Shown in pieces: positions 123 through 57,357 of a stretch of 64,000 nt of DNA (position 1 is the stretch's first letter; each line of letters opens with the position of its first letter). Below the pieces are notes generated by a model. The model was given only the letters and a program-made list of their open reading frames with translations, was not told the DNA's origin and did no database searches. The position numbers and the translations under genes were made by a program. Where the stretch lies: the NCBI GenBank assembly GCA_018396535.1, contig JAGTQC010000007.1, positions 598-64,597 of the forward strand. Direction: 5' to 3'. The stretch is from Candidatus Bathyarchaeota archaeon. Its GTDB lineage: Archaea > Thermoproteota > CALKCG01 > B24 > DRYS01.

Positions 123-1289
123 CTAGCTTCTAATACTGATACTATATGAGAGTAGTATCGATGCTACTGTTTGGAGAGATACCGTGTAGGCTATTACTAT
201 GAGTAGTGGTATACTGTAATCTAGCATAAATCCGTATACTAAACCTGAAATCAAAAATCCAGCTCCGTATAGAGTATTGAATATCCCGTATCCAGTCCCC
301 CTATATTCTGTTGATGTTATCGTAGCTATAACTGCACGATAGACAGATTCTTGCATCCCATATATAACTCCATAGATTACCGATGCAAGTATAATCGGGT
401 GAGCCGCCCCGATAAATACTAGGATAGAAGGTATAGTAGAAGTTATCAACGGTAGGTATAGTATTCTGAGACCGATTTTATCATATAGTACGCCTGATAC
501 GATAGCTGATGGTGCATCTACAGCTTGTATAACCAGGTATATTAGAGGTATAATCCATTCATCTAGAAATATGCTTGACGCTTTATAGAGTATTAGGCTA
601 GCTGGGATGAGTCCTAAGGTGTTAACCAAAATTGCAGAAGAGTATAACCAGAATTTTATGTTTAGACTAGAAGGCTTAAACGACCCATACTTAATCTTCC
701 TGGTAGATTCTATAGGTCCTATATTCTTATATGCATAGGTTAACGTAGCTATCAAAGCCGTATATGGTATTGCTAAAACTATAAATGCATACTCATACAC
801 ACCTCTAGTGTAGAACATAACGATGGATACAATTAGGGGGCCTAATATGGCTCCCACTTGATCGAGAAATTCATGCATACCGAATGCTTTACCCGCACCT
901 ACATCCTTAGATACCATAGATATTATCGTATCTCTACTAGGCGTTCTCAAAGCTTTACCTACTCTCTCAGTTATAGTTAGTATTACTGCTATAGGCCAAC
1001 TCCATGCTATCGATAATAACGGTATAGATGCTATCAAACCATATCCTACGAAAGTTAGGCTCCAATACCTACCGGTTACATCGGCTATTAGACCTGATAT
1101 CAATCTTAGACCTAAACCTATAGAATCTCCTAAACCTGCAGCTAAACCAGTTATAGAAGCGGATGCTCCTAGATACTTTAGAAAGCTTGGTATCAACCCC
1201 CTAGCTCCTTCATAGACTATATCACCCATTAGACTTACAAACCCTAGGAGAATTATAGCCTTATAACCTCTACTATATCTGCTCGACAA
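123..1289 (-). CDS. multi-pass membrane transporter, MFS-like
   Basis: 388 aa ORF with about 10-12 hydrophobic helices and a glycine-rich loop, typical of the major facilitator superfamily. No specific family motif was read. Confidence 0.45.
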   Translation of the reverse strand: MSSRYSRGYKAIILLGFVSLMGDIVYEGARGLIPSFLKYLGASASITGLAAGLGDSIGLGLRLISGLIADVTGRYWSLTFVGYGLIASIPLLSIAWSWPIAVILTITERVGKALRTPSRDTIISMVSKDVGAGKAFGMHEFLDQVGAILGPLIVSIVMFYTRGVYEYAFIVLAIPYTALIATLTYAYKNIGPIESTRKIKYGSFKPSSLNIKFWLYSSAILVNTLGLIPASLILYKASSIFLDEWIIPLIYLVIQAVDAPSAIVSGVLYDKIGLRILYLPLITSTIPSILVFIGAAHPIILASVIYGVIYGMQESVYRAVIATITSTEYRGTGYGIFNTLYGAGFLISGLVYGFMLDYSIPLLIVIAYTVSLQTVASILLSYSISIRS

Positions 1290-1335
1290 GCTACGGGGAT
1301 AGAATCAAATAGTATCCTATAAGTATTTTTCCTTG

Positions 1336-1737
1336 CTAGCGTACGTATCCATCTATTTCTAGATGCGAATATTCTCTAAGAAATATGGTAGGTATACCTT
1401 TAGATCTAAGCTTCTTCCTAAGCTCTCTATCATTAGTAGCTACGACTGCTTCCAGCTTAATAGCTGCTTTCAATATGGATTCATCAGTATTTAATCCCCT
1501 TACTTCATCTAAATCCATGATTATACACTTCTCCTCTATCAACTTTAAAGCTAGCCTAGCTCCACGAGAATTATCCCCCATCCCATCAGCTATATGTCTA
1601 ACTTCCTCGACTATTTGAGGTAAGACTATAAACTCTACATTCCTATCGAGTAAATCCTTTACTGCTTCGAATGGATCTATACCAAACTGGAATGGAAGTA
1701 GAAGGAAATTTGAATCTAGTATAACCTTAATGGGCAT
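1336..1737 (-). CDS. PIN-domain ribonuclease, the partner conserved downstream of aIF2-gamma
   Basis: 133 aa. The N-terminus ILDSNFLL…D is PIN-like, with acidic residues spaced as in PIN nucleases. A PIN gene at this position is the conserved archaeal arrangement. Confidence 0.6.
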   Translation of the reverse strand: MPIKVILDSNFLLLPFQFGIDPFEAVKDLLDRNVEFIVLPQIVEEVRHIADGMGDNSRGARLALKLIEEKCIIMDLDEVRGLNTDESILKAAIKLEAVVATNDRELRKKLRSKGIPTIFLREYSHLEIDGYVR

Positions 1738-1744
1738 ATCCTCT

Positions 1745-2977
1745 CTACGTTTTGATTACTCCGTAACCGATAAGCCTCCACCTATCAGCTATACGTCTAC
1801 TTACAGCTATCCTTTGACCTATAGGAGCACATACAGGCCTCCTTAAATTAATATGTAGTTCATCTGATTTCACATCGTCTACTACACCCACAGTTAACGA
1901 TGTACCTACGTTAAGCAGTAGAGTCTCCCCCCTGGATATAGATGATACACGGGTAGGCTCTACTAAACCTACCACATACTCAAATAATCTATACTCCATA
2001 GTGAAGTTGTTCCATACTGGCGGCATATGATCAGGATACCCTACTATATTTCCAACCATACCATCAGCTTTAGTTAGATAAGGATCGAGTTTAGTAGCAA
2101 TACCGACTAAACCTCCACATCTAGCCTCATCTACTTCTATGGATCCATACCTCAAGCTTACGACCTCGGTGATTAGACTCCTATAGCTTCCATCCGGCAT
2201 CCTAATTCCAGGTCTAATCTCTACCTCATCCCCCACTCTGAGTCTACCTTGAACTATAGATCCCCCTATCACTCCACCTTTAAGCTCCTGTACTGGTGTA
2301 CCAGGTTTATTCACATCGAACGATCTTACGACTAGCATTAATGGAGGTTTATTTGGATCCCTCTTAGGTGTAGGTATATAATTCTCTATAGCTTCGAGAA
2401 GATAGCCTATGTTAACCTTATGCTGAGCTGAGACAGGTATTATAGGAGCATCTCTTACACCATACTCATTTAGAAACTCCCTTATCTCCTTATAGCTTTG
2501 TAAAGCTCTACTCCTATCCACTAAATCTATCTTATTCTGTACGACTACTATATTCTCAACGCCTACTATTTTTAGAGCCATAAGATGCTCCCTAGTTTGA
2601 GGCTGAGGACATTTCTCATCTGCAGCTATCACTAAAAGAGCCCCATCCATAACGGCCGCACCAGCTAGCATAGTAGCCATAAGTATTTCATGTCCTGGAG
2701 CATCTACGAAGCTTACAGTCCTCACAGGCTCAACTTTGGAGTCGCATCGATCGCATATAGGCTTATTCGTATACCTGTATGGTGGATCACAGTTACTGCA
2801 CCTATATATTACCATATCAGCATACCCTAATCTTATCGTAATACCTCTCCTAAGCTCTTCGCTATGCCTAGCAGTCCATATACCTGTAAGTGCTTCTACT
2901 AGTGTTGTCTTACCATGATCTACATGTCCAGCAGTACCGATATTACATTCAGGTATTAATCGAGGATCTATCTGCAT
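1745..2977 (-). CDS. eif2g: translation initiation factor aIF2 gamma subunit
   Basis: 410 aa. GTPase G1 motif [15 protein letters not shown]4 motif, and the zinc ribbon CSNCDPPYRY…CDRC that is characteristic of e/aIF2-gamma. Confidence 0.9.
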   Translation of the reverse strand: MQIDPRLIPECNIGTAGHVDHGKTTLVEALTGIWTARHSEELRRGITIRLGYADMVIYRCSNCDPPYRYTNKPICDRCDSKVEPVRTVSFVDAPGHEILMATMLAGAAVMDGALLVIAADEKCPQPQTREHLMALKIVGVENIVVVQNKIDLVDRSRALQSYKEIREFLNEYGVRDAPIIPVSAQHKVNIGYLLEAIENYIPTPKRDPNKPPLMLVVRSFDVNKPGTPVQELKGGVIGGSIVQGRLRVGDEVEIRPGIRMPDGSYRSLITEVVSLRYGSIEVDEARCGGLVGIATKLDPYLTKADGMVGNIVGYPDHMPPVWNNFTMEYRLFEYVVGLVEPTRVSSISRGETLLLNVGTSLTVGVVDDVKSDELHINLRRPVCAPIGQRIAVSRRIADRWRLIGYGVIKT

Positions 2978-3054
2978 AACCTATCATCTTCAATCTAGAA
3001 TTATCAAGGGTAAAGATATACCTTAACCCATCTAATCGTTAATAGTAAGACGTG

Positions 3055-3420
3055 CTATGTACGCTGGGGTGAGGGTTTCTCGACAATCTTCACGTTAACC
3101 TGCACTATATCCGCGCTTATAGTATTACCTCTCACATATACCCTCCTCCTCTCCCCCCTTCTCCTAGGTCTAAATCCCACTCCTCCACTTAGTAGAAGCT
3201 TCTTCCTACCTGGGCCATATACATCTGGTCTCATAGGGAATCCATCCCTATCTGATCCACCCGTTATCATAAGCCTGTATCCACTTAAACCTATTATACT
3301 TCCATCGAATACATCCCCTATTTTTAAACCGTAGAGTAGCCTAGCCTTTGCTTCATCTACCTCTACGGTTTTAGCCGTACCATTTTCAGGATCTGATACT
3401 ACAAGCTTGATGTTAGGCAT
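3055..3420 (-). CDS. rps6e: 30S ribosomal protein S6e
   Basis: 121 aa. Matches the S6e consensus (KLVVSDP…G…[21 protein letters not shown]…[15 protein letters not shown]…GERRR…VRG). Adjacent to eif2g, as in most archaea. Confidence 0.85.
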
Positions 3421-3468
3421 TAATCCTCCCCTTCAACTGGCTAACCATCTAAGTCTCGACGCCTATGT

Positions 3469-5253
3469 TTAAACTTTTCCCCTTCTAATTCTTGTAATCT
3501 CGGTTATAAGCTCCTTATCTTCAGCTGTAAGATTTTCACCTAGCTTCTCGTACAATAATAGCTCATCCCTCTCACTTAGATATACGTATAGGATATCCCC
3601 TTCGTCGAAATGTCTACCTACCGTAGGTTTATCTATAGATATAGCAACTTTCATACCTACAGTAGCTTCAGGTATGGGCTTCCCCCTATCTTGTATCTGC
3701 TCTATCCTTCCTAATAATCTACCATCACTACGCATAAGAGGAGCGCCAGCCCTTATCCTGCCAGCTAGCACTTCTACACCTACTATAGCTGGTTTACTTC
3801 TCCTGAAAACATAACCCTGCAATACTCTCACCTTACCTGGCATAACTAGATCCTTTAACGTAAGCTTAGATAACCTATCCTTCTCAGATGAAGCCCAATT
3901 CAAGTAATCTTCTATCAAGCGATATATGATGTCATTGAAGAATATGGGGATTAAACCCATAGCCTCCTCCTCAGCTTCAGGTAGAATCCTAACATTGAAG
4001 GCTAGCACAACTCCATAGAGCGGATCACTAGCTCTACTAGCCTCAGCTTCGATAACATCTCTCCTAGTTACAGGACCTATATCAGCTATCCTCACTGGTA
4101 TATTATTACGTCTAAGTTCTGATATCAAAGCTTCAAGTGATCCTAGAGTATCAGCCTTAACGACTACGCCTATCCGATCAGTCCTAACTAGTAGATCCTT
4201 TACCTCCTCCGTGACGAGCTGCACGTATTCATCGATAGATCTACCAGGTTCGACGGCATATAACGGTGCACCTGGGATAGCCTCCTCCAACCCAGGTGCA
4301 ACTATTTTCACACCTGCCGCAGCTGCAACCTCTTCAACCTGCTCGAAACCTCCTGTAGGCATCCTTATCTCTTGTAAAGGCTTAGGTTGGAATAGTGCTC
4401 TAATCCTAGTCGATATGGGTGCTGATCTACCCATAGTAACTATTAGATCACCTCTCCTAAGAACCCCATCATATATTATAGCGTTGACCGTATGTCCTAA
4501 TCCAGGCTCTTCTAAAACTTCGATTATACTACCTCTAGCAGCTCCAGATGCTACGGTAAGCCTACTACGCATATACTGTTGGGTTATACCAACTAGAACC
4601 GCTAGAAGCTCAGGTATACCTTCACCTGTTTTAGCAGATACTGGTACTATAGCGACCTCCCTCCTGAAATCCCTCACCCTATCGAATCTATTAGAGTTAA
4701 AACCGTAGGATGCAAGACTAGATATAATACTCGATAACTTAACTTCAAGCTCAGCTACCACATATGGATCCTGCTTCCTTATAGATTCCATGAATGTAGT
4801 ATTAGGGCTGGGCCTCCAACCATCTATTAGATCTATCTTATTAGCAGCTACTAGAAACGGGACTCTCCTAGATTTTAGAAGATCTATAGATTCAACTGTT
4901 TGAGGCTCCACCCCCTTCATGACATCTATAACAAGTATAGCTATATCGGCTATCGAGCCACCCCTCCGTCTAAGGTTAGCGAAAGAATGATGACCAGGTG
5001 TATCTATGATAAGTAAACCTGGAACATCTATTCTCCATTTATATGCTTCTAATAGAGGTTTACATACAGCTCTAATAGTATCGGCTGGGAAGAAGCTTGC
5101 GCCTATATGCTGGGTTTAGGAGACCCTTCTATAAGGTCTCATCCCCCCAGCTTCCCTCATAGCTATAGCAGTACCTCTGATCTTATCTAGTAGAGTCGTC
5201 TTCCCATGATCTACATGACCTAGTACGACGACTATAGGGCTCCTTATCCTCAA
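3469..5253 (-). CDS. infB: translation initiation factor aIF5B (IF2 family GTPase), interrupted by a 24-nt in-frame insertion with a stop codon; putative BHB intron
   Basis: I translated the minus strand myself. The gene has a TTG start at 5251-5253 preceded by AGGTGA. The N-terminus reads (L)[37 protein letters not shown], then RPYRRVS-stop, then [22 protein letters not shown]…[10 protein letters not shown]…NKID… through to the C-terminus. This matches aIF5B along its whole length. The ORF track only reports the part after an internal Met (3469..4920). Confidence 0.85.
5116..5139 (-). other. putative 24-nt bulge-helix-bulge (BHB) pre-mRNA intron inside aIF5B
   Basis: In the mRNA sense the intron is AGACCUUAUAGAAGGGUCUCCUAA. 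Flanking sequence folds into a canonical hBHBh' motif: outer helix CUGGG/CCCAG (exon-exon), 4-bp central helix GGGA/UCCU, inner helix GACC/GGUC with a 9-nt loop. Two 3-nt bulges (UG|A and AA|A) sit on opposite strands, with the junctions after the second bulge nucleotide. Excision removes the in-frame UAA and restores REAGGMTQHIGA. Confidence 0.6.
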
Positions 5254-5420
5254 GGTATATCACCTTATGATCGGTAAACCTAGATTCTGAGGAGAGTTAT
5301 AAATAGTTCGATTTAGACTATCTAGGTAGGGAAATTCTTAATTACATGAATCCCATTCTGTAATTCTAGCTATACAGGAAATGATGTGATCGAGTATAGA
5401 GTATCAAGGGATGATGCATT

Positions 5421-8126
5421 ATGAATAGCATCTATGAAGTCAGATTATTCAAGGAAGAAGGGTTTAGACGTAGGAGATGCCCTTCATGTGGTAGATTCTT
5501 TTGGAGTCTAGATGAAGAACAGGTGTACTGCGGTGATCAACCTTGCGTAGAATATAGCTTTATAGGAAACCCTGTGACTAGTGTTAGGTATAGGCTTGAG
5601 GATCTACGTGAAGCATTCCTATCGTTCTTTGAAAGGAATGGTCATAAAAGGGTTAAGAGGTATCCTGTCGTAGCTAGGTGGAGGGAGGATGTATACCTAG
5701 TTGGAGCATCGATATATGCGTTCCAGCCATGGGTTACTGAAGGCATAGCTCCACCACCTGAGAATCCTCTAACTATAAGTCAACCATGTATAAGGCTAAC
5801 AGATCTACCAAAGGTTGGACGTACAGGTAGGCATCTAACTAGCTTCGAGATGATGGCGCATCATGCGTTCAATACGAGGGATGAGATTGTATACTGGAAT
5901 GATGAAACTGTAGATTACTGTTACAGATTCTATAGGGATGTATTAAAGATACCGGTTGAACATATAACCTTCATAGAAGATTGGTGGTCTGGTGGGGGTA
6001 ATGCTGGTGAAGATTTTGAAGTGGTTATAGGTGGAGCTGAAGTCGCCACCCTAGTATTTATGCATTATAGAGATAGAGATGGTGTTTTAGATGAGATGCC
6101 TGTGAAAGTTGTAGATACAGGCTACGGTTTAGAGAGGAATTTATGGATATGTTTAGGCACTCCTACCATATACGATGCAGTACATAGAGAGTTCATAAAT
6201 AAGATCATAATGGAAGCAGGTATACCTAGGATAGATGAAGATATACTTGTAGAAGTATCGAAAGCTTCGGGTAGAATGGAGAGTATAGCTGATTTAGAAT
6301 ATCAAGTTGCGAGTAGAGTTGGGCTATCCGTAGATGAGCTTCGACGAATTATGAAGCCATACAATGCCATATACGCTCTTTCCGATCATACATATACTAT
6401 AGCTTGGATGCTATGTGATGGAATAGTACCTTCTAATACAGGTGCAGGGTATTTAGCTAGACTTCTAATTAGGAGGAGTCTAAGATTTCTTAGGGAGCTT
6501 GGATTAGAGATACCGTTATCAAATCTTGTGGATCTACAAATATCACGTATAGCTAGAAGCTACCCTGAAGTCATGGATTCTAGAAGTAGCGTATTGGATA
6601 TAGTTGATGTAGAGTGTGAAAGATATCGTAGAACTATAAGCGAAGCACCTAAGATTATAGAACGTATAGTAGCGAGGAGGAGGGATAAACTCACGCTGAA
6701 CGACTTAGTAGAACTATACGATTCCTACGGTATACCTCCTGAAGTCTCTGAAGAATACTTATCTAAGCTAGGTATAGAAGTTGAGAAGGGTGATTTCTAC
6801 GCTCTACTAGCTTCTAAGCATAGTAAACCTGAGGAGGTTAAGGTTGAGGAGAAACCTATTTCAAAACTCGTAAAGGATCTACCAGCTACACGTATGCTAT
6901 ACTATGAGTATCCAGCTATGCTTACGTTTAAAGCGAGGGTTCTAAAAGCCGTGGATCGATATGTTATACTCGATTCTACATGCTTCTATCCAGAAGGTGG
7001 TGGAGCTATATCAGATATAGGTGTTATGAGATGGGAGGGGGGTGAAGCTCGTGTAGTAAACGTGGAGAAGATAGGCGATATAATAGTTCATACTGTAGAG
7101 GGGCTCCTACCGCCTATAGGTGTAGAGGTAGAGGGATACATAGATAGGGAGCGTAGGGAGCAGGTTAGGAGGCATCATACTGCTACACATATACTTATAG
7201 GAGCTGCTAGGAGACTTCTAGGTACTCATGTATGGCAGATGGGGTCGTTGAAATCCGTAGATTATGCTAGACTAGATATATCACATTACAAGAGGTTATC
7301 GTTAGATGAACTTCGATCCTTAGAGAGGATGGCTAACGAAATCGTTAGAGAGGCTAGACGTGTTAACGTATACTGGATACCTAGGGATAAGGCTGAATCC
7401 ATGTATGGATTTACACTATATCAGGGAGGTGTTTTCCCAGGTAAGATTCTGAGAGTTGTAGAGATAGAAGGGTGGGATGTAGAGGCGTGTGGAGGGATAC
7501 ATTGCGATAATACATCCGAAGTCGGATTCATAAAGATAATAGGAGCTGAGCGTATACAAGATGGTGTTGAGAGGATACACTTCGCAGCTGGTGAAGCTTC
7601 ACTTAGATATCTATGGAGTATAGAGGATACCATTAGGGATCTATCCAATATGCTCTCAGCCCCCGTTGATAAACTAGTGCTCACAGTCGGTAACCTACTA
7701 GAGGAAGTTAAGAGTCTACGTAAGGAAGTTAGAAGGCTTAGAGAAAGGATAGCTGGATCTATAGCCGCTGGCTATAGAAGTATAGAGCTTGAAGGAGGTG
7801 TTAGAATTAGTATAGCATCTATGGAAGGTGATCCTGAGACTATTATCAAAGTCTGCGAGAAGATGGTTGATAGAGATCCATCACTTATCACGATATTCTT
7901 CATACCTGGAGAAATATATAGATTGGTAGTCATGGCTGGAGACGATGCTATAGCTAAAGGGTTTGATGCAGGTAGAATAGCATCTATGATAGCTAAAGCT
8001 ATGGGTGGGGTGGGCGGTGGGAAGGCTAGGCTAGGCCAGGGTGGTAAGCTTAACCCCACGGAAGTTGAGAAGCTTTTATCCAATGTAGATAGAGTCAAAT
8101 ATATCCTGAAATCGTTAGGTGGCTGA
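5421..8126 (+). CDS. alaS: alanyl-tRNA synthetase, archaeal type
   Basis: 901 aa. N-terminal zinc-ribbon-like CPSCGRFFWS, class II core, editing-domain HxxxH motif (HHTATHIL) and CGGIHC. Confidence 0.9.
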   Translation: MNSIYEVRLFKEEGFRRRRCPSCGRFFWSLDEEQVYCGDQPCVEYSFIGNPVTSVRYRLEDLREAFLSFFERNGHKRVKRYPVVARWREDVYLVGASIYAFQPWVTEGIAPPPENPLTISQPCIRLTDLPKVGRTGRHLTSFEMMAHHAFNTRDEIVYWNDETVDYCYRFYRDVLKIPVEHITFIEDWWSGGGNAGEDFEVVIGGAEVATLVFMHYRDRDGVLDEMPVKVVDTGYGLERNLWICLGTPTIYDAVHREFINKIIMEAGIPRIDEDILVEVSKASGRMESIADLEYQVASRVGLSVDELRRIMKPYNAIYALSDHTYTIAWMLCDGIVPSNTGAGYLARLLIRRSLRFLRELGLEIPLSNLVDLQISRIARSYPEVMDSRSSVLDIVDVECERYRRTISEAPKIIERIVARRRDKLTLNDLVELYDSYGIPPEVSEEYLSKLGIEVEKGDFYALLASKHSKPEEVKVEEKPISKLVKDLPATRMLYYEYPAMLTFKARVLKAVDRYVILDSTCFYPEGGGAISDIGVMRWEGGEARVVNVEKIGDIIVHTVEGLLPPIGVEVEGYIDRERREQVRRHHTATHILIGAARRLLGTHVWQMGSLKSVDYARLDISHYKRLSLDELRSLERMANEIVREARRVNVYWIPRDKAESMYGFTLYQGGVFPGKILRVVEIEGWDVEACGGIHCDNTSEVGFIKIIGAERIQDGVERIHFAAGEASLRYLWSIEDTIRDLSNMLSAPVDKLVLTVGNLLEEVKSLRKEVRRLRERIAGSIAAGYRSIELEGGVRISIASMEGDPETIIKVCEKMVDRDPSLITIFFIPGEIYRLVVMAGDDAIAKGFDAGRIASMIAKAMGGVGGGKARLGQGGKLNPTEVEKLLSNVDRVKYILKSLGG

Positions 8127-8170: not shown

Positions 8171-10447
8171 ATGAGCAAACTTAGTATAGCTAAATTTAGA
8201 GCTCTCGTTAGGAAGATAGCATCTGAAGCTATATCTTCAGGTGAAAGGAGGCTTATAGTTCTAGCTGGTAGAGAAAGCCTAAGGTATGGATGTCTCGCGG
8301 TACGTGCATACTGTAAGCTAGTTAAGAAGAAGGTATCGCTACTCTACAGTGCCGATACTGATCAGACTGGTGCTCTAATAGGGCTAGATAATGTTAAGGA
8401 TGAGTTGAAGGGAGTAGCTTCCCTAGATGCTTTAAGCTTAGATGAGAGTGATCTAGCTTTAGGTGGTACATGGGATCTACTTCTAGTAGACTTCTCTAAA
8501 CAGTTTAGAGCAAACGATCTAGGTAGACTAACCGAAACTGTTAGGGGTGGAGGCCTCCTATTATTCTGTATACCACCATTAGATGAATGGTTCTCTACGC
8601 TAACACCGTTCGAGAGGAAGCTTATTTCTAAACCATATACTGAGTATGATATTAAGCATTTATTCAAGAGGAGGTTTGTATCGAAAGCTTTAGAGCATCC
8701 GGGAGTATGGCTTATAGATCTAGAGAAGGGGGAAGTATATGGAAGAGAGACTAAGACTATAAGTTCTGCTCCTGCAAGATTTACCGTAAACCTCTATGGT
8801 ATACCTTTAACCGAGGATCAGCTCAAAGCTATAGAGGTTTTCCAGAAGCTCGTAGAGACTAAGGGTAAGAGCTGTCTACTAGTAATAGCCGATAGGGGTA
8901 GAGGTAAATCTGCAGCTATAGGTTTAGGGTTAGCTTGGTATGCAAAGAAGCTTATAGATGAGGGTAGATCTAGGTTTATCATACTCACCGCACCTGAACC
9001 TAGTAATATCAGAACTCTAGTAGACTTCCTAGTTAGAGGGCTTGAGATTCTAAATATCAGATATAATGTGAGAGAGGTTGGTGGAGTTATACGTAAGGTT
9101 GAAGTAGATGGTGTAGAAGTAGCCTATACGCAGCCAGTCACAGCGGCTAAGAGTAAAGTCGCTGTCAAAGTAGTAGATGAGGCTGCAGGTATACCTATAC
9201 CTTTACTCTTAGGTATACTCAAAAATTCTAAGATATCCATTTTCTCTTCGACGATACACGGCTACGAAGGAGCTGGTAGAGGTTTCTCGGTTAGGTTTAT
9301 GAAAGCTCTTAAAGAAGATCCTAGACTTAACGTAGAGTATGTAAAGTTAGAAACCCCGATAAGGTATCCTAAGGATGATCCTATAGAAAGATGGCTCTAT
9401 GACATGCTCCTCCTCGACGCTGAGCCTGATAAAATTGAAGGTGAACCCTCATTAGATCTAGTGAGCTATAAACGTATAGATAAGGATGATCTATTCAGGG
9501 ATGAAAGCATCCTCAGAAGCCTATATGGTATATACGTGTTAGCGCACTACAGGAATAGACCTAACGATCTAGCTATACTATTGGATGCGCCTCATCATTC
9601 AGCTAGAGCGTTGATATATAATGGAAAGGTTATCGTAAGTTTATGGGTTGCAGAAGAGGGCGGTTTAACATTCGCATCGAGAGATGATATGCTTAGAGAA
9701 GCTGAAGCTTCAGGTCACGTTATACCTAGCCGTGTCGCTCTACATTGTAGTGTTCTAGATTTCTTCAAATTGAAGGGTTTACGAATCGTACGTATAGCTA
9801 CGCATCCAAACTTCACTGGTAGAGGTTTCGGATCTAAAGCTCTAAGTATGCTTGAATCCGAATCTTCAGGTATATATCATTGGATTGGAGCTAGCTTCGG
9901 CGCATCCGAAGAGCTTGTAAAATTCTGGACTAGGAATGGGTATATCCCAGTGCATCTAAGCCCTTCTATAAACCCTGTTTCAGGAGAGTATAGTTTGATA
10001 GTGATTAAACCGTTAACAGAGGAAGCTTATGAGTATGTAGCTCAAGCTAACGTCGAATTCAGGGTGCGTTTGCTCGAAAGCCTATACGATGTATACTCGA
10101 AGCTTAAGCTCGATATAGCTAGACTCCTACTATCGGTAGGTCTTGGAGGTATGCGTATAGAACTTACAAGAAGCCAGGAGGATAGAGTAAGAGAGTATAG
10201 CAGAGGTATGTTGAGCTATGAAGCTTCATGCGATTCTGTGAAAGCTCTAGCTAGGATACACTTCCTATCTAAACCCGATGAAAGGGTTAAATTCGAAGAT
10301 TACGAAGAGAAATTGATGATAGCTAAGCTATTCATGGGTATGGATTGGGAGTCTATAAGGAGGATCCTTAAGATAGATAAACCTTTAGATTGTATGAGAA
10401 GAATAGCAGGTAGAATGGTGGAATGCTATTTGGATAGATCAGGCTAA
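8171..10447 (+). CDS. tmcA: tRNA(Met) cytidine acetyltransferase TmcA (NAT10/Kre33 homologue)
   Basis: 758 aa. P-loop GRGKSAAIGLGLAW in a helicase-like module, followed by a GNAT acetyltransferase module (RIATHPNFTGRGFGSKAL). This architecture and size are typical of archaeal TmcA. Confidence 0.7.
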   Translation: MSKLSIAKFRALVRKIASEAISSGERRLIVLAGRESLRYGCLAVRAYCKLVKKKVSLLYSADTDQTGALIGLDNVKDELKGVASLDALSLDESDLALGGTWDLLLVDFSKQFRANDLGRLTETVRGGGLLLFCIPPLDEWFSTLTPFERKLISKPYTEYDIKHLFKRRFVSKALEHPGVWLIDLEKGEVYGRETKTISSAPARFTVNLYGIPLTEDQLKAIEVFQKLVETKGKSCLLVIADRGRGKSAAIGLGLAWYAKKLIDEGRSRFIILTAPEPSNIRTLVDFLVRGLEILNIRYNVREVGGVIRKVEVDGVEVAYTQPVTAAKSKVAVKVVDEAAGIPIPLLLGILKNSKISIFSSTIHGYEGAGRGFSVRFMKALKEDPRLNVEYVKLETPIRYPKDDPIERWLYDMLLLDAEPDKIEGEPSLDLVSYKRIDKDDLFRDESILRSLYGIYVLAHYRNRPNDLAILLDAPHHSARALIYNGKVIVSLWVAEEGGLTFASRDDMLREAEASGHVIPSRVALHCSVLDFFKLKGLRIVRIATHPNFTGRGFGSKALSMLESESSGIYHWIGASFGASEELVKFWTRNGYIPVHLSPSINPVSGEYSLIVIKPLTEEAYEYVAQANVEFRVRLLESLYDVYSKLKLDIARLLLSVGLGGMRIELTRSQEDRVREYSRGMLSYEASCDSVKALARIHFLSKPDERVKFEDYEEKLMIAKLFMGMDWESIRRILKIDKPLDCMRRIAGRMVECYLDRSG

Positions 10448-24193: not shown

Positions 24194-24268
24194 GGTCCGG
24201 TAGCTCAGCCTGGCTGGAGCACCAGCTTGGTAAGCTGGGGGTCGCGGGTTCAAATCCCGCCCGGACCT
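24194..24268 (+). tRNA. tRNA-Thr (anticodon GGT)
   Basis: I folded it by hand as a cloverleaf. Acceptor GGTCCGG/CCGGACC, D stem GCTC/GAGC, anticodon stem CCAGC/GCTGG with loop TTGGTAA, T arm GCGGG-TTCAAAT-CCCGC. No intron and no encoded CCA. Confidence 0.85.
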
Positions 24269-24453
24269 CTAACCCTGAAGATAAAGGTATAGATTCCAAA
24301 GTTTATCCTTCCTATTGATGGTACCCTAGAGGTATCTCCTACAGGTTGAAAGTATCAGCTATCATTATAGTGGGATTAAATAAGGAGGCAGCTTGTAAAA
24401 AGTTATATACCAAAAGCTTTTGGCGATACATAAAGGTGAAAGGTTTATCGTAG

Positions 24454-30582: not shown

Positions 30583-31545
30583 TCATGTATCTATATGCAT
30601 TCTAGGTATAACCCGGTATTCATAATCCTCTTCAGTTCTCGAAATCTCTATGGTCAATCCATCCTCAGCCACTACCACATTTGGATGTATTCTTCTAGCC
30701 TCATCTAGTAGTATATCCGATGTAACATATCTAGCTGATATATGCGTCAATACTAGAAGCTTCACAGAGCTTCTCAAAGCTATATATGCAGCTTGAGCTG
30801 CAGTGCTATGCCTCTCAGCCATAGCCTTATCTGCTAGATCCTCTGTGAACGTTGCTTCATGTATGAGTATATCTACACCCTCCGCAAGCTCCTCGATAGC
30901 TCTACATGGTACGGTATCGCCTGTGTAGGCTAGCTTAAACCCTCTACGTGGAGGGCCTAAGACATCGCTAGGCTTGATAATCCTTCCATCATTTAGTTTT
31001 ATAGATTCTCCAAGTTGTAGCTTCTTCCATAGCGGCCCTTTAGGTATACCTAGAGCTATAGCTTTATCTGGGTAGAATAAGCCAGGTCTATCCTTCTCCT
31101 CGAATCTATATCCGTAGGATTCACCTCCATGTTGAACTCTACGACATAGAATCCTATAAGCTCCGAAATCGTAGTATACGTTATCCTCGACTTTGAAGAT
31201 TTTGAGATCGTACGTTGTATTTAAACCGATAGTATCTCTTAAACAATGTATATACTCTCCAAGTCTAGATGGACCGTAAACCTCTACAGGAGTCTTCCTA
31301 TCTAGAAGGGAGAATGTTTGGAGTAGACCTGGTAAGCCTAGGATATGATCTCCATGCATATGTGATATAAATACCCTTAGAGGTCTACCCATACCTATCC
31401 TATACTCTATGAATCGGAGTTGTATACCCTCACCGCAATCGAATAGTATAAGATCTGAATCCCATTCGATAAGTATACCTGGTAGATTACGATTTAGAGT
31501 AGGCATACCTGCTGATGTACCTAGGAATAATATACGATACGGCAT
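30583..31545 (-). CDS. rnz: ribonuclease Z (tRNA 3' endonuclease), metallo-beta-lactamase fold
   Basis: 320 aa. HxHxDH zinc motif (HMHGDHILG), short-form RNase Z size, conserved downstream His/Asp. Confidence 0.7.
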   Translation of the reverse strand: MPYRILFLGTSAGMPTLNRNLPGILIEWDSDLILFDCGEGIQLRFIEYRIGMGRPLRVFISHMHGDHILGLPGLLQTFSLLDRKTPVEVYGPSRLGEYIHCLRDTIGLNTTYDLKIFKVEDNVYYDFGAYRILCRRVQHGGESYGYRFEEKDRPGLFYPDKAIALGIPKGPLWKKLQLGESIKLNDGRIIKPSDVLGPPRRGFKLAYTGDTVPCRAIEELAEGVDILIHEATFTEDLADKAMAERHSTAAQAAYIALRSSVKLLVLTHISARYVTSDILLDEARRIHPNVVVAEDGLTIEISRTEEDYEYRVIPRMHIDT

Positions 31546-31552
31546 AGCGATC

Positions 31553-32584
31553 CTACCTCTTACAGACGAGGATCTCTCTAGTTAAGTTTCCATGAACCCT
31601 CTGAATATACTTCTCTATTATCACGAATCCAGCATCTTCTACTAGTCTTGATGCTTCGAATTCTATCGGAGACATAAAGCATAGGTAGCCACCTCGTCTA
31701 ATAGTATCGTATGCTTCACGGAGGAAGTCATCTATAAGCTTAACAGGATTTACACCTTTAGTGGATGAAGCTCTCCCATAGGGAGGATCTGTAACTATCC
31801 TATCGACGTTTGAAAATGGGATTCTACGTGCATCACCTCTTATAAGCCCATCGAAAACCAATCCATAACCCCTCAAATTACTCTCAGCTTTACGAATCAT
31901 ATCCATATCCATATCGATACCTGCAATCCTACAGCCTATTAAAGCAGCCTCTATCAATATACCACCGACACCGCAGAATACGTCTAGGAGGAAATCCCCA
32001 GCTTTAGCTCTAGATAGATTAACGAGACACCTAGCTATATCTGGCTGTAGGGTGGATGGATGGAGAGCTGGTCTACGTATAGGAATTCTATTCATAAATA
32101 ATTCTGTAAACTTAAGCCTAGATACCTGGATGCCTATATGAGCCAACCCAGAATCTAGGAAGCATACCACTATGTAATCTGGCTTCTCTAAGTCGACTCT
32201 GAAACCTCTTCGTCCGATAGCATCGCCAGCCGCCTCTTCTAAACGTCTAGATAAACCACGCATAGATGGATCTAGCCTCTCTGTATCAATTTTGAAACTT
32301 CTACCCTCCTCCATAAAGCTGGGGAAATCTATTCTCGATAGAGCATCTATGATAGAATCTGGATCTGCTCTACATGAAGCTATCCATAGGGCAATTCTTC
32401 TTACATAGCTACATCTCCTCTTCAAGGCTTCGATGGATGATTCATCTGCCTCTACTAACAGTAGCATTCTAGAATCTAGGATTACATCGTATGCTAACCC
32501 TTCAGCTTCTAGTACAGCTTTAACCTCAGCTTTAGGTAGTGAAGGATGCCACCCCGAAACTCTAATCAGGATCCTTCTATTCAT
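31553..32584 (-). CDS. THUMP-domain tRNA (guanine-N2)-methyltransferase (Trm14/TrmN-like)
   Basis: 343 aa. N-terminal THUMP-like region, SAM-binding motif LDVFCGVGGILIEAA, catalytic DPPYG. Confidence 0.6.
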   Translation of the reverse strand: MNRRILIRVSGWHPSLPKAEVKAVLEAEGLAYDVILDSRMLLLVEADESSIEALKRRCSYVRRIALWIASCRADPDSIIDALSRIDFPSFMEEGRSFKIDTERLDPSMRGLSRRLEEAAGDAIGRRGFRVDLEKPDYIVVCFLDSGLAHIGIQVSRLKFTELFMNRIPIRRPALHPSTLQPDIARCLVNLSRAKAGDFLLDVFCGVGGILIEAALIGCRIAGIDMDMDMIRKAESNLRGYGLVFDGLIRGDARRIPFSNVDRIVTDPPYGRASSTKGVNPVKLIDDFLREAYDTIRRGGYLCFMSPIEFEASRLVEDAGFVIIEKYIQRVHGNLTREILVCKR

Positions 32585-39243: not shown

Positions 39244-41754
39244 TTATCTATCCAATACTTCGATAGCTGGTTTATTCATGTTGATCCATGCATCTTTAGC
39301 TGTAATCTTTGCTTTCCTAGGATATTCCTCTACCTCCACCTCTACTGCGACCGGGAATGGTATCAGTGAACCTAGACCCCAGAATAATGCTTCATGATCA
39401 GCTAATCCTGGTAGATAGTCTGACAATCTCTCATTACTATATTCTGTATATTTGAGTATCGCTTCTTGATCGTTTCCACTCATAAGTCTAAAACATGCTA
39501 TCGTATTACACTGCGATATTATCGACTTAGATATATACGCTGGCCTCTGTGTTATAAATATGAATCCTACATTATACCCTCCAGCTTGACTTACAGCTTC
39601 TATCAATTCCTTATCCACACCGATCTTTTCAGGATTACCTACCTCTATCTTCAATCCTTTCTCCGGTGTGAAGTATTGTGCCTCCTCTATAACGAATATG
39701 ACGGCGAAATCCCCTTCATCCCTTCTACTTAGAGCATAGTCTACAACCCTGGATACTATATGGCGTACAGTTATATGCTGAGCATCTATATCCGTATCTA
39801 TAGATAGATCTACTATGACGATCGGTGTTGCTCTACATACATCCACTATATCTATATACTCGTATCCCTCATCAAGGAAATCACCCCTCCTCTCTAGAGC
39901 CCAGCGTATAAGATTCAAATTATAACTATTACTACGACTACTAATCATCGGAGCTATACGATTAACCTCTCTGAGTAGAGATGATCTATTAACATCTTCA
40001 CCCCTAGCTTTCAGCGATTCTATAGCTTCAGTTATTAAGCGGCCTGCAGAGGATGATGGATCTAGGTTTAATCTAGATGCTATAAGCTTACCCTTTAGCA
40101 TAGCTGATTTAGGTAGGAATAATCTGTATGGATAGATTTTCCCACCAAACTTAGTTAGAGCTGTATACTCGCATCTACGGTCTAGAATTATAAATCTAGG
40201 CTGAGGCTCCATCTTAGAAGCCTTAGCTATAAGACTAACTACGAAGCTAGATTTACCACTACGAGTATTATGACAGAAAACCCCACCTAAACCTGCCACG
40301 AAATTTTCATAGCTAGGAATGGATAGATCATATACAAATTCGTAGTCGTAGTCTACTAAATCTATCTTCGATATCCTAACTAGAGCTAGATCGCTTTGAA
40401 AGGGTTCACGATCGTATCCGTTAGTTATAAGCTTAAGATAGGATATCTCCGATACTAGCTTTTCGCTACGTATTAAACCTAAGCTTAGAAGTTGGGTTAG
40501 AGTTTCGAGAAGTGATCTGAGGATAGGAGGTTTAACGTTGAAGAGTAGTGTAGGTATATGTGGACTGTCATCTGAAGGTTTTATACTATTAAAGAATGAA
40601 CTTAACGCCCTATTCTTCAACTTGACCTCTATGTATTCACGTAAATAATCGATAGAGAAATCATAGATAGGTATAATCGATCTAATGTTAGATACTATCG
40701 ATATTACATCATCGTATACATGTCTCGGTATTCTGAAGATAACCTCATCTAGAGTACTATACCCGAATACGATATAGTATGCTATCATTCTAGCGATATC
40801 TTCGTTTAAAGCTATCTTAAGCTGTATACATCTATCTTCGCTATACGTATAAGCTAAATCTAAAGACTCTATATACGATGCTGGTCTAGGTATGAATAGA
40901 GGTACCAGTATAGGATCACCCGGCTTTAGATTATAAGCTTCTATAGCCTCTATCCTCGAATCCCTCATAGTAAAGACAGAGTGGGAAGGTGTAACCGTTA
41001 CTACACGTCCATCCTCAAGTTGTATCCTAATCATAGGTCCGCTATACCTATGCCTTACAACGCTTCTCACAGGGCGCCATTCTAACCTAAGAGTTTCTGG
41101 ATTAAACGCTGGGACATAAACTTCCTCATTCAACTCTATCTCACCTTCAGAATCGTTATTAAAGAATCTATCTACAAAGCACCCTATCTCCTCTACTCTA
41201 ACCTCCCCTCTAAGCATGTATACGATAGGCTCCCAGTACGCTACACTCATACCAGCCACGAACATATGCCCTTTAGCTATAGAATTGAGGTCGAGATATA
41301 TCGGAACATCAGACCCCTTCAACTTACCTATGCGTATCGGGAAGCAATCCCTTCTACCGCTCTTCGTTATTTCCATATAGAATTCTTGTAGTTCATATGG
41401 TTCAGGCTGGTATACTGGATCCCATGTTCCAGGTGCACATTCTAACCTAACCCACTTCCCATCACTACGTATATAGCCTAACGCTTCTGCGAAGGCTACA
41501 TCATACTCTAATCCTTTACCATACTGAGCCTTCTCCCCCTTCTTACCAGCTATAGGTCCAAATCCGCCTAACCCCATCTCAGGATTATATGGGGTTACTT
41601 TGAATACCCTAAGAAGAACGGGCGTGAATGTGTCACCGCTTAATGGATGTTTAATAAAGTAATATCCGTTAACTACGACTTTATACCCTTCTCTAACTAC
41701 GAACGGTATTACCTTCTGATCGCATCCAGATAGTACATAGCCAATTTCGATCAA
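39244..41754 (-). CDS. herA: HerA-family (DUF87) hexameric ATPase/helicase carrying an intein in its Walker A P-loop
   Basis: 836 aa. N-terminal HAS-barrel, then KGHMFVAGM, then the intein, then TRSGKSSFVVSLIAK (split P-loop). Walker B-like VIFVIEEAQYF and the HerA C-terminal block GFIFITQRPAYISKSIISQCNT. The extein totals about 509 aa, which is HerA-sized. Confidence 0.8.
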   Translation of the reverse strand: MIEIGYVLSGCDQKVIPFVVREGYKVVVNGYYFIKHPLSGDTFTPVLLRVFKVTPYNPEMGLGGFGPIAGKKGEKAQYGKGLEYDVAFAEALGYIRSDGKWVRLECAPGTWDPVYQPEPYELQEFYMEITKSGRRDCFPIRIGKLKGSDVPIYLDLNSIAKGHMFVAGMSVAYWEPIVYMLRGEVRVEEIGCFVDRFFNNDSEGEIELNEEVYVPAFNPETLRLEWRPVRSVVRHRYSGPMIRIQLEDGRVVTVTPSHSVFTMRDSRIEAIEAYNLKPGDPILVPLFIPRPASYIESLDLAYTYSEDRCIQLKIALNEDIARMIAYYIVFGYSTLDEVIFRIPRHVYDDVISIVSNIRSIIPIYDFSIDYLREYIEVKLKNRALSSFFNSIKPSDDSPHIPTLLFNVKPPILRSLLETLTQLLSLGLIRSEKLVSEISYLKLITNGYDREPFQSDLALVRISKIDLVDYDYEFVYDLSIPSYENFVAGLGGVFCHNTRSGKSSFVVSLIAKASKMEPQPRFIILDRRCEYTALTKFGGKIYPYRLFLPKSAMLKGKLIASRLNLDPSSSAGRLITEAIESLKARGEDVNRSSLLREVNRIAPMISSRSNSYNLNLIRWALERRGDFLDEGYEYIDIVDVCRATPIVIVDLSIDTDIDAQHITVRHIVSRVVDYALSRRDEGDFAVIFVIEEAQYFTPEKGLKIEVGNPEKIGVDKELIEAVSQAGGYNVGFIFITQRPAYISKSIISQCNTIACFRLMSGNDQEAILKYTEYSNERLSDYLPGLADHEALFWGLGSLIPFPVAVEVEVEEYPRKAKITAKDAWINMNKPAIEVLDR
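40267..41247 (-). mobile_element. intein (~327 aa) with a degenerate LAGLIDADG-like endonuclease region, inserted between the G and T of the HerA P-loop
   Basis: N-terminal block-A-like SVAYWEPIVYMLRGEVRVEEIG. Block B DGRVVTVTPSHSVF. C-terminal blocks F/G DYEFVYDLSIPSYENFVAGLGGVFCHN, followed by Thr as the +1 extein residue. The central region IAYYIVFGYST…LSLGLIRSEK looks like decayed LAGLIDADG motifs. An alternative N boundary is the Cys in IGCFVDRFF (about 305 aa). Confidence 0.7.
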
Positions 41755-42869
41755 GGCTTTAAGCCTCCATTATCTGTTAAAGCCCAATATTCTCCATGCT
41801 GAAGTAGGAGGAAGTTTAATTCTTCAGATGTAAGCTCCCCCCTCTTAACTAGTTCTACAGCTTTAGCGAAGAAATTTAGAGTATGGATGTTAGAGAATGG
41901 TTTACTTATCCTCGTATACCTATCAGCTTCATGTATAGGGTATGGTATACCCATAACGTTTGCAGATGCTATTATAAGCGAGATAGCTTCCTCGAATCTA
42001 TCTAGGTTGAAGCTTGGAATCTCTATCCTGAAGGGTATTATCCAAGTTTTAACATAACTACTATAGATCTCCGCCATACATACATCTATACTAAGATCTC
42101 TAGCTATTCTAGCATACGATTCTGAGACTTTATTTCTTATAGGGAACGGCTCGGTATAATCGCCTTCATTCATTATCAGGCTTAGGAAAGTTACATCTCT
42201 AAACTTATCATAGCCTAGAAGACTACCATAATAATTCATACAGCTACGTTTAACAAAACCTAAAACTAGGATATCGTTCTCCATACATACTCTGAGTAAT
42301 TCTAAAGCTTGCATAACAGTATATGTGAAATCGTATCTGTAATCGCTAGAATCGGAATTGTTGGGATGAAGTCTAGGATTCAATACTATACCTCCATCTA
42401 TTATTAAGTAATTCGGTCTCCAGAGTTCTACAGCTCTTCTTGCTGCATAATACTCTAAAGCCATATGGAGGAGATTCTCTCTCCTCTCAGGTTCATCATC
42501 GACAGCCCATATATCTGGTGGGCCTGCTATACAGAGAGGCTCGCCTTTAAGCTCCATACCCTCGAATAATACGGCTACAGCATTGTATATTGGTACGTAT
42601 GCGAATCTGAAATGTACACCGTTATGTCCAGCATCGACTCCGACTATACGTTTAGAAGCTAGAAGACCTTTATCCACTAGGCAATTCTTAATTCTTATAA
42701 AGTTCTTCAAACTCTCAGCTACATGCCTACACTCCTTTACATATCCTCTAAACCTTTCTATGAGAAGATCGGTACCCTTTTCTATCATATCCTGGTATAG
42801 TTCAGAGTAGACTAGTTCATGATCCATATTATAGATGGATCTTATACGTAGGTTATTGTTGGTTAACAT
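41751..42869 (-). CDS. nurA: NurA-family 5'-3' nuclease
   Basis: 372 aa. NurA-like aspartate motifs IVGVDAGHNG and YLIIDGGIVLN. Lies immediately upstream of herA with a 4-nt overlap, the usual nurA-herA translational coupling. Confidence 0.6.
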   Translation of the reverse strand: MLTNNNLRIRSIYNMDHELVYSELYQDMIEKGTDLLIERFRGYVKECRHVAESLKNFIRIKNCLVDKGLLASKRIVGVDAGHNGVHFRFAYVPIYNAVAVLFEGMELKGEPLCIAGPPDIWAVDDEPERRENLLHMALEYYAARRAVELWRPNYLIIDGGIVLNPRLHPNNSDSSDYRYDFTYTVMQALELLRVCMENDILVLGFVKRSCMNYYGSLLGYDKFRDVTFLSLIMNEGDYTEPFPIRNKVSESYARIARDLSIDVCMAEIYSSYVKTWIIPFRIEIPSFNLDRFEEAISLIIASANVMGIPYPIHEADRYTRISKPFSNIHTLNFFAKAVELVKRGELTSEELNFLLLQHGEYWALTDNGGLKP

Positions 42870-49611: not shown

Positions 49612-49887
49612 TTGAAGAGGAGGCTTATGGAATACCTAGCATGCCCAATAGATAAACACCACCCACTAGACTTGATAGTATTCGAAGAGGATGGAGAAGA
49701 GATAAAGGAAGCTATCATAATATGCTGGAAGTGTAGGAGGTACTACCCGGTTAAGGATGGAATACCAGAAATGCTTCCAGATCAGCTTAGAGATAGGAGG
49801 GAGGATACGGCATTCCTAGAGAAATGGAAGGATAGGATACCTAGAGAAATACTCGAAGAGGGAAAGCCATACCCTCTAAAGAAGTAA
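49612..49887 (+). CDS. Trm112-like zinc-ribbon protein (methyltransferase activator)
   Basis: 91 aa. YLACPIDKHHPL…CWKCRRYYPVKDGIPEMLPD matches the Trm112/UPF0434 signature. Confidence 0.65.
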   Translation: MKRRLMEYLACPIDKHHPLDLIVFEEDGEEIKEAIIICWKCRRYYPVKDGIPEMLPDQLRDRREDTAFLEKWKDRIPREILEEGKPYPLKK

Positions 49888-49933: not shown

Positions 49934-50007
49934 AGCCCGGTGGTGCAGCCTGGTAAGCATGGAGGCCTTTGGAGCCTCCGACGGGAGTTCGAATCTCCCC
50001 CGGGCTA
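49934..50007 (+). tRNA. tRNA-Gln (anticodon TTG)
   Basis: Hand-folded cloverleaf. Acceptor AGCCCGG/CCGGGCT with an A1:U72 pair, which is typical of archaeal tRNA-Gln. Anticodon stem GAGGC/GCCTC with loop CTTTGGA, T arm GGGAG-TTCGAAT-CTCCC, discriminator A. No intron. Confidence 0.8.
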
Positions 50008-57089: not shown

Positions 57090-57357
57090 CTATAGGCGGT
57101 ATGATAGCTAGTATATCCCCATCCCTAACACTGGTAGTCGAAGCCCTAGATCTATCTATACCTACACCGTTTAAGACTAGGTATAGCCTCTCCTCCCTAA
57201 GATTCTCCTCTAGATATCTACGAAATTCTCCGCCAAACCTCTCGCTAAGCTTCTCTACAACATCCTCTACAGTAGATCCATCACCTACCTCTATAGATAC
57301 CTCCCTAGAACCAGCTATCTCCCTAAGCCTAGCGAATAGTCTAACCTTAACCTCCAT
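57079..57357 (-). CDS. MoaD/ThiS-family ubiquitin-like sulfur-carrier protein (SAMP-like)
   Basis: 92 aa with a beta-grasp pattern and a C-terminal diglycine (…IIPPIGGG). Overlaps the MTTase start by 11 nt. Confidence 0.7.
   Translation of the reverse strand: MEVKVRLFARLREIAGSREVSIEVGDGSTVEDVVEKLSERFGGEFRRYLEENLREERLYLVLNGVGIDRSRASTTSVRDGDILAIIPPIGGG

Follow-up and report, generated by a model that had tools for sequence, protein, structure and literature searches.

The 64-kb stretch of Candidatus Bathyarchaeota DNA analyzed here (contig JAGTQC010000007.1, positions 598 to 64,597; hereafter the window) carries infB, the gene for the archaeal translation initiation factor aIF5B, on its minus strand at 5253..3469, from a TTG start codon (5253..5251) to a UAA stop codon (3471..3469). 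Its reading frame contains 24 surplus nucleotides (5139..5116, minus strand; AGACCUUAUAGAAGGGUCUCCUAA), corresponding to eight codons including an in-frame UAA, which we describe here as a candidate bulge-helix-bulge (BHB) intron. The insert lies in phase 0 at the Met38/Thr39 codon boundary of the switch-I motif GG[I/M]|TQHIGA (the bar marks the junction), and translation of the unspliced RNA would end after 45 codons. Deletion of the 24 nucleotides in silico yielded an in-frame 586-aa product (...REAGGM|TQHIGAS...), and the predicted spliced RNA reads ...GGGGGGAUG|ACCCAGC... at the junction. An earlier note on this DNA, made from the letters alone, had reported eight extra codons with a stop in switch I and had stated that excision of 5116..5139 restores the frame; both statements are borne out by the position of the UAA within 5139..5116 and by the alignment of the joined product with known aIF5B proteins.

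The spliced product was recognized as aIF5B over its full length and above family cut-off (NF003078, TIGR00491), with the GTPase domain, domain II, the IF-2 domain, and domain IV. Against the archaeal IF-2 equivalog NF003078 it scored 818.5 bits (cut-off 468) in a single stretch covering profile positions 8-590 of 598, and it aligned with Aeropyrum pernix aIF5B (PDB 5fg3; E 2e-200) without a gap at the junction, where the structure reads KEAGGITQHIGAS. Precomputed Pfam matches of aIF5B are PF00009, PF03144, PF11987, and PF14578. Gene callers, in contrast to this 586-aa product, find an open reading frame (ORF) of 483 aa, which starts at an internal ATG at 4920 and matches NF003078 from profile position 111 onward, so that the P-loop, switch I, and DTPGH (G3) are missing from it. 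No in-frame ATG, GTG, or TTG occurs within the 65 codons downstream of the stop codon in the insert. The TTG start is common to nearly all members of the clade described below and to the closest intron-less relative, and the Shine-Dalgarno-like element upstream of it is kept in relatives as AAGGTGAG or GAGGTGG.

In the mRNA sense, the insert and its flanks can be folded into a BHB framed by an outer and an inner helix with the strict 6/3/4/3/6 geometry (hBHBh'), in which two 3-nt bulges lie on opposite strands (Table 1). The in-frame UAA of the insert is composed of the last U of the central helix and two A residues of the bulge. Cleavage between bulge residues 2 and 3, documented for the cbf5 intron (PMC2738675), would generate the junction AUG|ACC and restore GGM|TQHIGA, ungapped with respect to both 5fg3 and NF003078. 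We place the cut after the second bulge nucleotide because one relative, L017, has G as the third base of the 5' bulge (UGG); there, a cut one base later would change the invariant switch-I Thr to Ala. The earlier note had outlined the same canonical hBHBh' with bulges UGA and AAA cut after their second nucleotides. Its 5-bp outer helix, however, has 6 bp, and the inner helix that it gave as GACC/GGUC around a 9-nt loop is identical to the one described here but was counted short (6 bp and a 5-nt loop). The fold was also said to contain no mismatch, which holds for true mismatches, although one pair of the central helix is a G.U wobble.

Table 1. Predicted features of the infB locus (window coordinates)
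Feature	Position	Strand	Remark
TATA-box-like UUUAUAA	5297..5303	-	~45 nt 5' of start codon, between the divergent genes alaS and infB; putative promoter
Shine-Dalgarno-like GGUGA	5260..5264	-	6 nt 5' of the TTG start; putative ribosome-binding site
aIF5B exon 1	5140..5253	-	TTG start, 38 codons; P-loop (G1) and first half of switch I
Candidate BHB intron, 24 nt, AGACCUUAUAGAAGGGUCUCCUAA	5116..5139	-	phase 0, Met38-Thr39
aIF5B exon 2	3469..5115	-	548 codons and stop; begins TQHIGASFF; rest of switch I, G3-G5, domains II-IV
Complete hBHBh' motif, 43 nt	5109..5151	-	predicted splicing-endonuclease substrate; BHB fold -20.0 kcal/mol
Outer exon-exon helix, 5' arm GCUGGG	5146..5151	-	same in all variants, although the third positions of its Ala/Gly codons are free
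Central 4-bp helix, 5' (exon) arm GGGA	5142..5145	-	
5' bulge UG|A	5139..5141	-	predicted 5' cut between 5140 and 5139
Intron-internal helix GACCUU/AGGGUC, 6 bp	5122..5138	-	5-nt loop AUAGA, 5132..5128
Central helix, 3' (intron) arm UCCU	5118..5121	-	pairs G.U, G-C, G-C, A-U
3' bulge AA|A	5115..5117	-	predicted 3' cut between 5116 and 5115; same in all variants
Outer helix, 3' arm CCCAGC	5109..5114	-	sole change in relatives ACC to ACU, G.U pair kept

Conservation of the insert and selection on its flanks

DNA of relatives came from contigs of JGI and Logan, three Bathyarchaeia metagenome-assembled genomes (MAGs) that are GTDB species representatives, and a metagenome collection, and protein relatives were found by searching 5.8 billion proteins with the spliced product. 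A 24-nt insert was present at the identical codon boundary in every close relative fetched, amounting to more than 20 independently assembled contigs. Nine distinct insert sequences were recovered in one clade of Bathyarchaeia with aIF5B identities of 76-100 % (Table 2), and the other variants differ from the insert of the window at 1-13 of the 24 positions. The earlier note had proposed to look in orthologous genes for a same-site insert with compensatory changes, and such inserts were indeed found, in Bathyarchaeia; its expectation that the relatives would belong to Thermoproteales/Desulfurococcales was wrong. Relatives at 62 % identity or less (Candidatus Bathyarchaeia/Bathyarchaeota) are full length (~590 aa) and uninterrupted at the insertion site. 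Among them, P0005 (62 % identity) reads GAA CCC GGC GAG ATC|ACC CAG, and other intron-less relatives are similar. The presence of intron-less relatives outside it indicates that the putative intron is confined to one tight clade.

Table 2. Distinct sequences of the 24-nt insert in the Bathyarchaeia clade
Source	Insert
Window and L030-32	AGACCTTATAGAAGGGTCTCCTAA
L033-35	AGACCCTATAGAAGGGTCTCCTAA
L001 group	AGGCTCGATCATAGAGCCTCCTAA
L018	AGGCTCGATCGTAGAGCCTCCTAA
L017	GGGCTCGATCATAGAGCCTCCTAA
L004	AGACTCTATTATAGAGTCTCCTAA
L007	AGACTCTACCGTAGGGTCTCCTAA
L008	AGGCTCTGCTATGGAGTCTCCTAA
L005	AGGCTTAGGTTTTAAGCCGCCTAA

The two 3-nt bulges on opposite strands of a 4-bp helix were found in eight of the nine variants, the exception being L005, in which the central arm GCCU introduces one A.G mismatch and relaxes the BHB. 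A 6-bp outer helix and an inner helix of 5-7 bp flank the motif in all variants. Covariation was scored for eight variants on an alignment that was not fitted to any structure. Standard pairs occupied 99.2 % of the BHB cells, compared to 29-52 % when the 3' partners were slid by one to three columns. Compensatory changes on both sides were detected in three of five scored inner-helix pairs (A-U/G-C/G-U, C-G/U-A/U-G, and U-G/C-G/U-A), and the inner helix of L033-35 has C-G in place of U.G. The loops diverge; pairing is thus kept while the interior of the insert varies. The outer and central helices vary only by an ACC to ACU change, which retains a G.U pair, and by the A.G mismatch of L005. The peptide encoded by the insert varies as well (RPYRRVS*, RLDHRAS*, RLYYRVS*, RLYRRVS*, RLCYGVS*, GLDHRAS*, and RLRF*AA*, the latter in L005 with two in-frame stops).

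Rates of nonsynonymous (dN) and synonymous (dS) change were estimated by the Nei-Gojobori method between the window and five relatives, with 36 codons of exon 1 compared. Exon 2 showed dS of 0.88-1.04 and dN of 0.055-0.063 (dN/dS 0.05-0.07), and exon 1 showed dS of 0.32-1.17 and dN of 0-0.038. Strong purifying selection on both exons indicates that both halves are translated, in frames that only splicing joins. The exonic BHB arms (GCU GGG GGG AUG | ACC CAG) are nearly frozen at their synonymous sites: one of five degenerate codons varies, with its G.U pair kept, compared to 72 % of the codons for invariant residues elsewhere among the first 180. A possible extra helix formed by GAAGCU and AGCUUC (codons 31-32 and 42-43) was dropped, since its 3' half is equally conserved in the intron-less P0005, in which the 5' half is not complementary; this complementarity is probably fortuitous.

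In the protein databases, the closest four protein clusters (100, 89, 87, and 76 % identity) were all called N-terminally shortened, at 483-497 aa. The public calls from JGI, NCBI, ENA, and Logan (P0001-P0004 and P0121-P0129) likewise start at an internal Met and are devoid of the P-loop, switch I, and switch II. In L005, exon 1 was called as a separate 42-aa 'GTP_EFTU (weak)' gene (2686-2814). The gene order alaS (divergent)/infB/rpS6e/aIF2-gamma/PIN_9/MFS (123-8126 in the window) is kept in L001-L004 (87-89 % aIF5B identity). In L005 (76 %), alaS upstream gives way to a gene for an aldehyde:ferredoxin oxidoreductase (AFOR), and PIN_9 is followed by one for an inositol-1-phosphate synthase.

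Proposed splicing and its alternatives

BHB-like motifs are common by chance, and a motif alone therefore proves nothing. With helices of at least 4, exactly 4, and at least 4 bp, 127 were observed in the window versus ~106 in dinucleotide shuffles; with at least 6, 4, and at least 6 bp and an intron of 12-60 nt, 2 were observed versus 0.8 expected per window. As these counts are near the shuffle expectation, we rejected window-wide significance as an argument. The second 6/4/6-bp motif, with a 24-nt 'intron' and many G.U pairs (57259..57301, minus strand), lies in a ThiS-family gene (57079-57357). We regard it as a chance motif and a negative control, as the ORF is uninterrupted and excision would remove the conserved segment VGDGSTVE. 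What makes the infB motif significant is that its cut sites match insert boundaries set independently by protein homology, together with its conservation in relatives; the chance of a BHB of such quality at one given position and length is ~1.3e-7. A scan of the window for other BHBs joining two open frames returned, besides infB, just weak 3/4/3 motifs bridging neighboring genes. No further copy of the insert was found in the window with up to 3 mismatches allowed, and thus nothing points to a repeated mobile element.

Homology, conservation of the insert, covariation, and selection all support the proposal of the earlier note, and we consider it highly probable, on the basis of sequence comparison, that the infB insert is a functional, spliced archaeal BHB intron in the aIF5B coding sequence. 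EndA cleavage, RtcB ligation, circularization of the intron, and any regulatory role are what we infer for its processing. In the proposed mechanism, which is modeled on the established EndA/RtcB route of archaeal BHB introns, an infB pre-mRNA would be transcribed from its own promoter, and 43 nt around codons 33-40 would adopt the succession of helix, 3-nt bulge, 4-bp helix, 3-nt bulge, and helix. The tRNA-splicing endonuclease EndA would cut at UG|A and AA|A and thereby generate 2',3'-cyclic phosphate and 5'-OH termini, and the RNA ligase RtcB would join the exons to AUG|ACC. The freed 24-nt intron would probably be closed by RtcB into a small circle. A complete 586-aa protein in which switch I (GGMTQHIGA) is intact would then arise from spliced mRNA only. 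EndA and RtcB are near-universal in archaea. Given the strict hBHBh', an EndA of the broad-specificity (alpha-beta)2 or epsilon2 type should not be needed; these enzymes have been invoked for the mostly relaxed cbf5 motifs (PMC2738675).

Several observations weigh against this interpretation. The minimum free energy (MFE) structure predicted by ViennaRNA is a competing hairpin and not the BHB (-22.6 versus -20.0 kcal/mol at 37 °C); it is favored by 1-2.6 kcal/mol across 37-75 °C, with the same order at 60 and 75 °C. The competing fold pairs G12-A13 of the 5' bulge with U31-C32 and yields an 8-bp hairpin containing a 5x5 internal loop. The G-A of the 5' bulge repeats the last two residues of the central-helix arm (GGGA UGA). 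Owing to this duplication, the UC of the intron can pair with either copy, and the BHB and the 8-bp hairpin are mutually exclusive. To our knowledge, lowest-energy status is not strictly defining for a BHB, as nearest-neighbor models penalize bulges and the enzyme binds the BHB. Furthermore, the outer and central columns are almost invariant and thus add no covariation, so that covariation does not separate the BHB from the alternative hairpin. The frozen-codon argument is only moderately strong, because low synonymous change extends beyond the BHB (codons 38-43; CAU AUA GGx GCA AGC UUC) and the 3' exon sequence is alike in the intron-less P0005; the low synonymous change 3' of the BHB probably reflects something other than the intron. 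Chance alone yields BHB-like motifs of similar quality about once per window, as described above. An exact look-up in a 15-billion-protein collection returned neither the spliced 586-aa proteins nor the exon-1 mini-ORFs. Finally, Pfam annotation of all 57 ORFs detected no endA, rtcB, cbf5, or second infB in the window. EndA and RtcB lie outside it, their presence in this lineage being assumed from their near-universality, and a second, divergent infB elsewhere in the genome, beyond the 64 kb, is possible.

The competing hairpin raises the question of whether the element might act without splicing, either as an attenuator or RNase site that renders most transcripts non-productive or as an EndA target whose cleavage is followed by decay and not by ligation. 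The predicted MFE structure is a plain hairpin with an internal loop, and endonuclease cleavage without ligation has a precedent in yeast, in TSEN-mediated mRNA decay (PMC10485636). Under this scenario, however, there would be no route to a functional aIF5B despite the strong selection on both halves, and the exactly gene-restoring, in-frame geometry would be a coincidence of ~1e-7. We consider an unspliced regulatory hairpin very improbable.

Split proteins are known in some Nanoarchaeota, and the two infB ORFs reported by gene callers (42-45 aa and 483-497 aa) could represent a split gene, whose 45-aa P-loop peptide and C-terminal fragment would be made independently and then combine to form an active factor. 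Yet a start codon is absent for 65 codons after the stop, as is a ribosome-binding site, and the C-terminal fragment would lack switch I and DTPGH (G3), although the 65 codons concerned show perfect conservation and are under selection. The tail of the first ORF, in contrast, is not conserved and acquires an extra stop in L005, and a split gene would leave the RNA pairing and covariation unexplained. Separate translation is thus very unlikely. Recoding by the ribosome, through bypassing of the 24-nt hairpin in the manner of phage T4 gene 60 or through readthrough of the stop, seems equally remote. A stable hairpin does lie beyond the putative take-off region, and the gap to be crossed is short and keeps the frame. 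However, gene-60 bypassing requires matching take-off and landing codons, and here AUG (after GGG) at the take-off site is not matched by UAA, the triplet ahead of the landing site. Readthrough would add eight non-conserved residues to switch I and in L005 would have to pass two stops, and the 3-4-3 bulge geometry with its in-register cut sites is not explained by hopping.

Even less probable is that the insertion inactivated this infB copy and that a working copy resides elsewhere in the genome. An in-frame stop within the most conserved GTPase motif is what a pseudogene might show, public gene callers treat infB as truncated, and 64 kb of the genome are visible. This reading is largely refuted by the selection data (exon 2 dN/dS 0.05-0.07; exon 1 dN ~0), as a pseudogene would not have kept such constraint over a dS of about 0.9-1.4. 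It is further contradicted by the maintenance of insert length, position, and pairing in nine variants, by the conserved alaS/infB/rpS6e/aIF2-gamma/PIN synteny, and by the single infB locus found in each of the three MAGs. An assembly or sequencing artifact, conceivable for metagenome-derived data, is excluded because the identical insert recurs in independent samples and assemblies (L030 from JGI; L031 and L032 from Logan), and eight further diverged variants occur in other samples.

Returning to a spliced BHB intron, it is tempting to speculate that it serves as a control point, at which ribosome loading on the message itself or the capacity of EndA and RtcB sets splicing and hence aIF5B synthesis. 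The features that might be cited for this are the location of the intron 36-38 codons into the mRNA, where the first translating ribosomes can melt the exon arms of the BHB, and the competition by the alternative hairpin. We regard this idea as doubtful. If true, it would establish a feedback loop between tRNA/rRNA processing and translation initiation. In a broader form, it raises the possibility that coding BHB introns may be systematically missed in Bathyarchaeia and other uncultured archaea, with their host proteins silently shortened by gene callers.

Relation to known introns and intervening elements

The cbf5 pre-mRNA of Sulfolobales and Desulfurococcales reportedly contains a BHB intron, work that is attributed to Watanabe (2002) and Yoshinari (2006). 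It was also treated by Yokobori in 2009 (PMC2738675). In a 2020 experimental survey, BHB introns beyond tRNA and rRNA were reported only in the cbf5 mRNA of Crenarchaeota, with the addition of a 5'-untranslated region (UTR) intron in Haloferax HVO_1309 (PMC7714728). In a structural study of the splicing endonuclease from 2025, the reference list contains only cbf5 papers for pre-mRNA introns, and the main text does not mention cbf5 (PMC12397907). A literature search on aIF5B/IF-2 introns, BHB motifs in Bathyarchaeota, and protein-coding BHB introns since 2012 retrieved no prior report. The claim of the earlier note that coding BHB introns are known only in cbf5 therefore agrees with the literature searched, with the 5'-UTR case to be added (PMC7714728, PMC10485636).

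The predicted mechanism is that of cbf5; what is new is the gene that hosts the element, the lineage, and the strictly canonical form of the motif. Like the cbf5 intron, the infB element is a short intron candidate inside the coding sequence of an essential RNA- or translation-related gene. A BHB spans its exon-intron borders, with the predicted cuts after bulge residue 2, its interior varies while the border pairing is kept, and it occurs in one clade only, with intron-less relatives and a gene mis-called by gene finders. Unlike in cbf5, the host encodes aIF5B and not a pseudouridine synthase, the lineage is Bathyarchaeia, and the length is fixed at 24 nt. The infB motif is a strict 3-4-3 in eight of nine variants, whereas most cbf5 motifs are unconventional or relaxed and have been linked to the (alpha-beta)2 endonuclease (PMC2738675). 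Splicing of cbf5 is backed by cDNA and in vitro cleavage; the infB case is known from sequence.

HVO_1309 of Haloferax volcanii (Schwarz 2020, PMC7714728) likewise has an mRNA on which the tRNA-splicing endonuclease acts via a BHB; its intron, however, lies in the 5' UTR and leaves the ORF intact, whereas the infB insert breaks the ORF, so that splicing would be obligatory for function. With archaeal tRNA and rRNA introns, the infB element shares the motif and the predicted EndA/RtcB enzymology, and its 24 nt fall within the quoted range of 11-175 nt for tRNA introns (PMC2738675). The host, in contrast, is an mRNA. As it offers no tRNA body, the enzyme would have to recognize the BHB alone, which the strict hBHBh' permits. 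Archaeal IF-2/aIF5B proteins with inteins (NF011418, PRK14845) also carry an intervening element that must be removed from the conserved GTPase domain of the same gene, but the intein comprises hundreds of residues and self-splices at the protein level, whereas the 24-nt infB element would be removed as RNA by host enzymes. More distantly, IRE1/RtcB splicing of HAC1/XBP1 in eukaryotes resembles the infB case in being a non-spliceosomal, RtcB-type removal of a short, stem-loop-defined mRNA intron that alters the reading frame output, but it differs in the endonuclease (IRE1), the recognition structures, and its stress-regulated logic.

For more than 20 years, cbf5 has been the sole archaeal coding sequence known to need BHB splicing. 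The infB gene would be the second. It comes from another phylum-level lineage and encodes an essential GTPase that is conserved universally, and the cell would need its tRNA-splicing machinery to make this core initiation factor. EndA of any type should be able to cleave the strict canonical motif of infB. With the intron present at 76 % or more and absent at 62 % or less aIF5B identity, the clade provides a clean test bed for intron gain. For annotation, the consequence is that every public call of this infB orthologue is ~100 residues short and has lost the P-loop, switch I, and switch II.

Other elements of the window

A permissive Rfam scan of 4900-5420 gave noise only (E above 2), and at gathering thresholds Rfam detected two intron-less tRNAs and nothing else in the window. 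These are its only tRNA genes, Thr(GGU) at 24194-24269 and Gln(UUG) at 49934-50007, both on the plus strand. As both are intron-less, the window does not directly show what a tRNA BHB intron of this organism looks like. No tRNA genes were found in the flanks of the fetched relatives, where intron-containing ones were sought. Genes for RNA modification or processing are scattered over the window, at 8171-10447 (+), 30583-31545 (-), 31553-32584 (-), 49612-49887 (+), and 55782-57089 (-). They encode a TmcA/NAT10-type RNA cytidine acetyltransferase, a metallo-beta-lactamase/tRNase Z-like protein, a THUMP-domain methyltransferase, Trm112, and a MiaB-like radical-SAM/TRAM protein, and none is a splicing enzyme.

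A second intervening element resides in the gene for a HerA-type helicase (836 aa; 39244-41754, minus strand), which adjoins NurA (41751-42869, minus strand). It is an intein, matched by Pfam Intein_splicing at residues 209-496 (E 6e-20) and by the NCBIfam N- and C-terminal splicing regions at residues 176-262 and 473-497. One 64-kb window thus holds intervening elements of two kinds in essential or housekeeping genes, the HerA intein at the protein level and the candidate infB intron at the RNA level.

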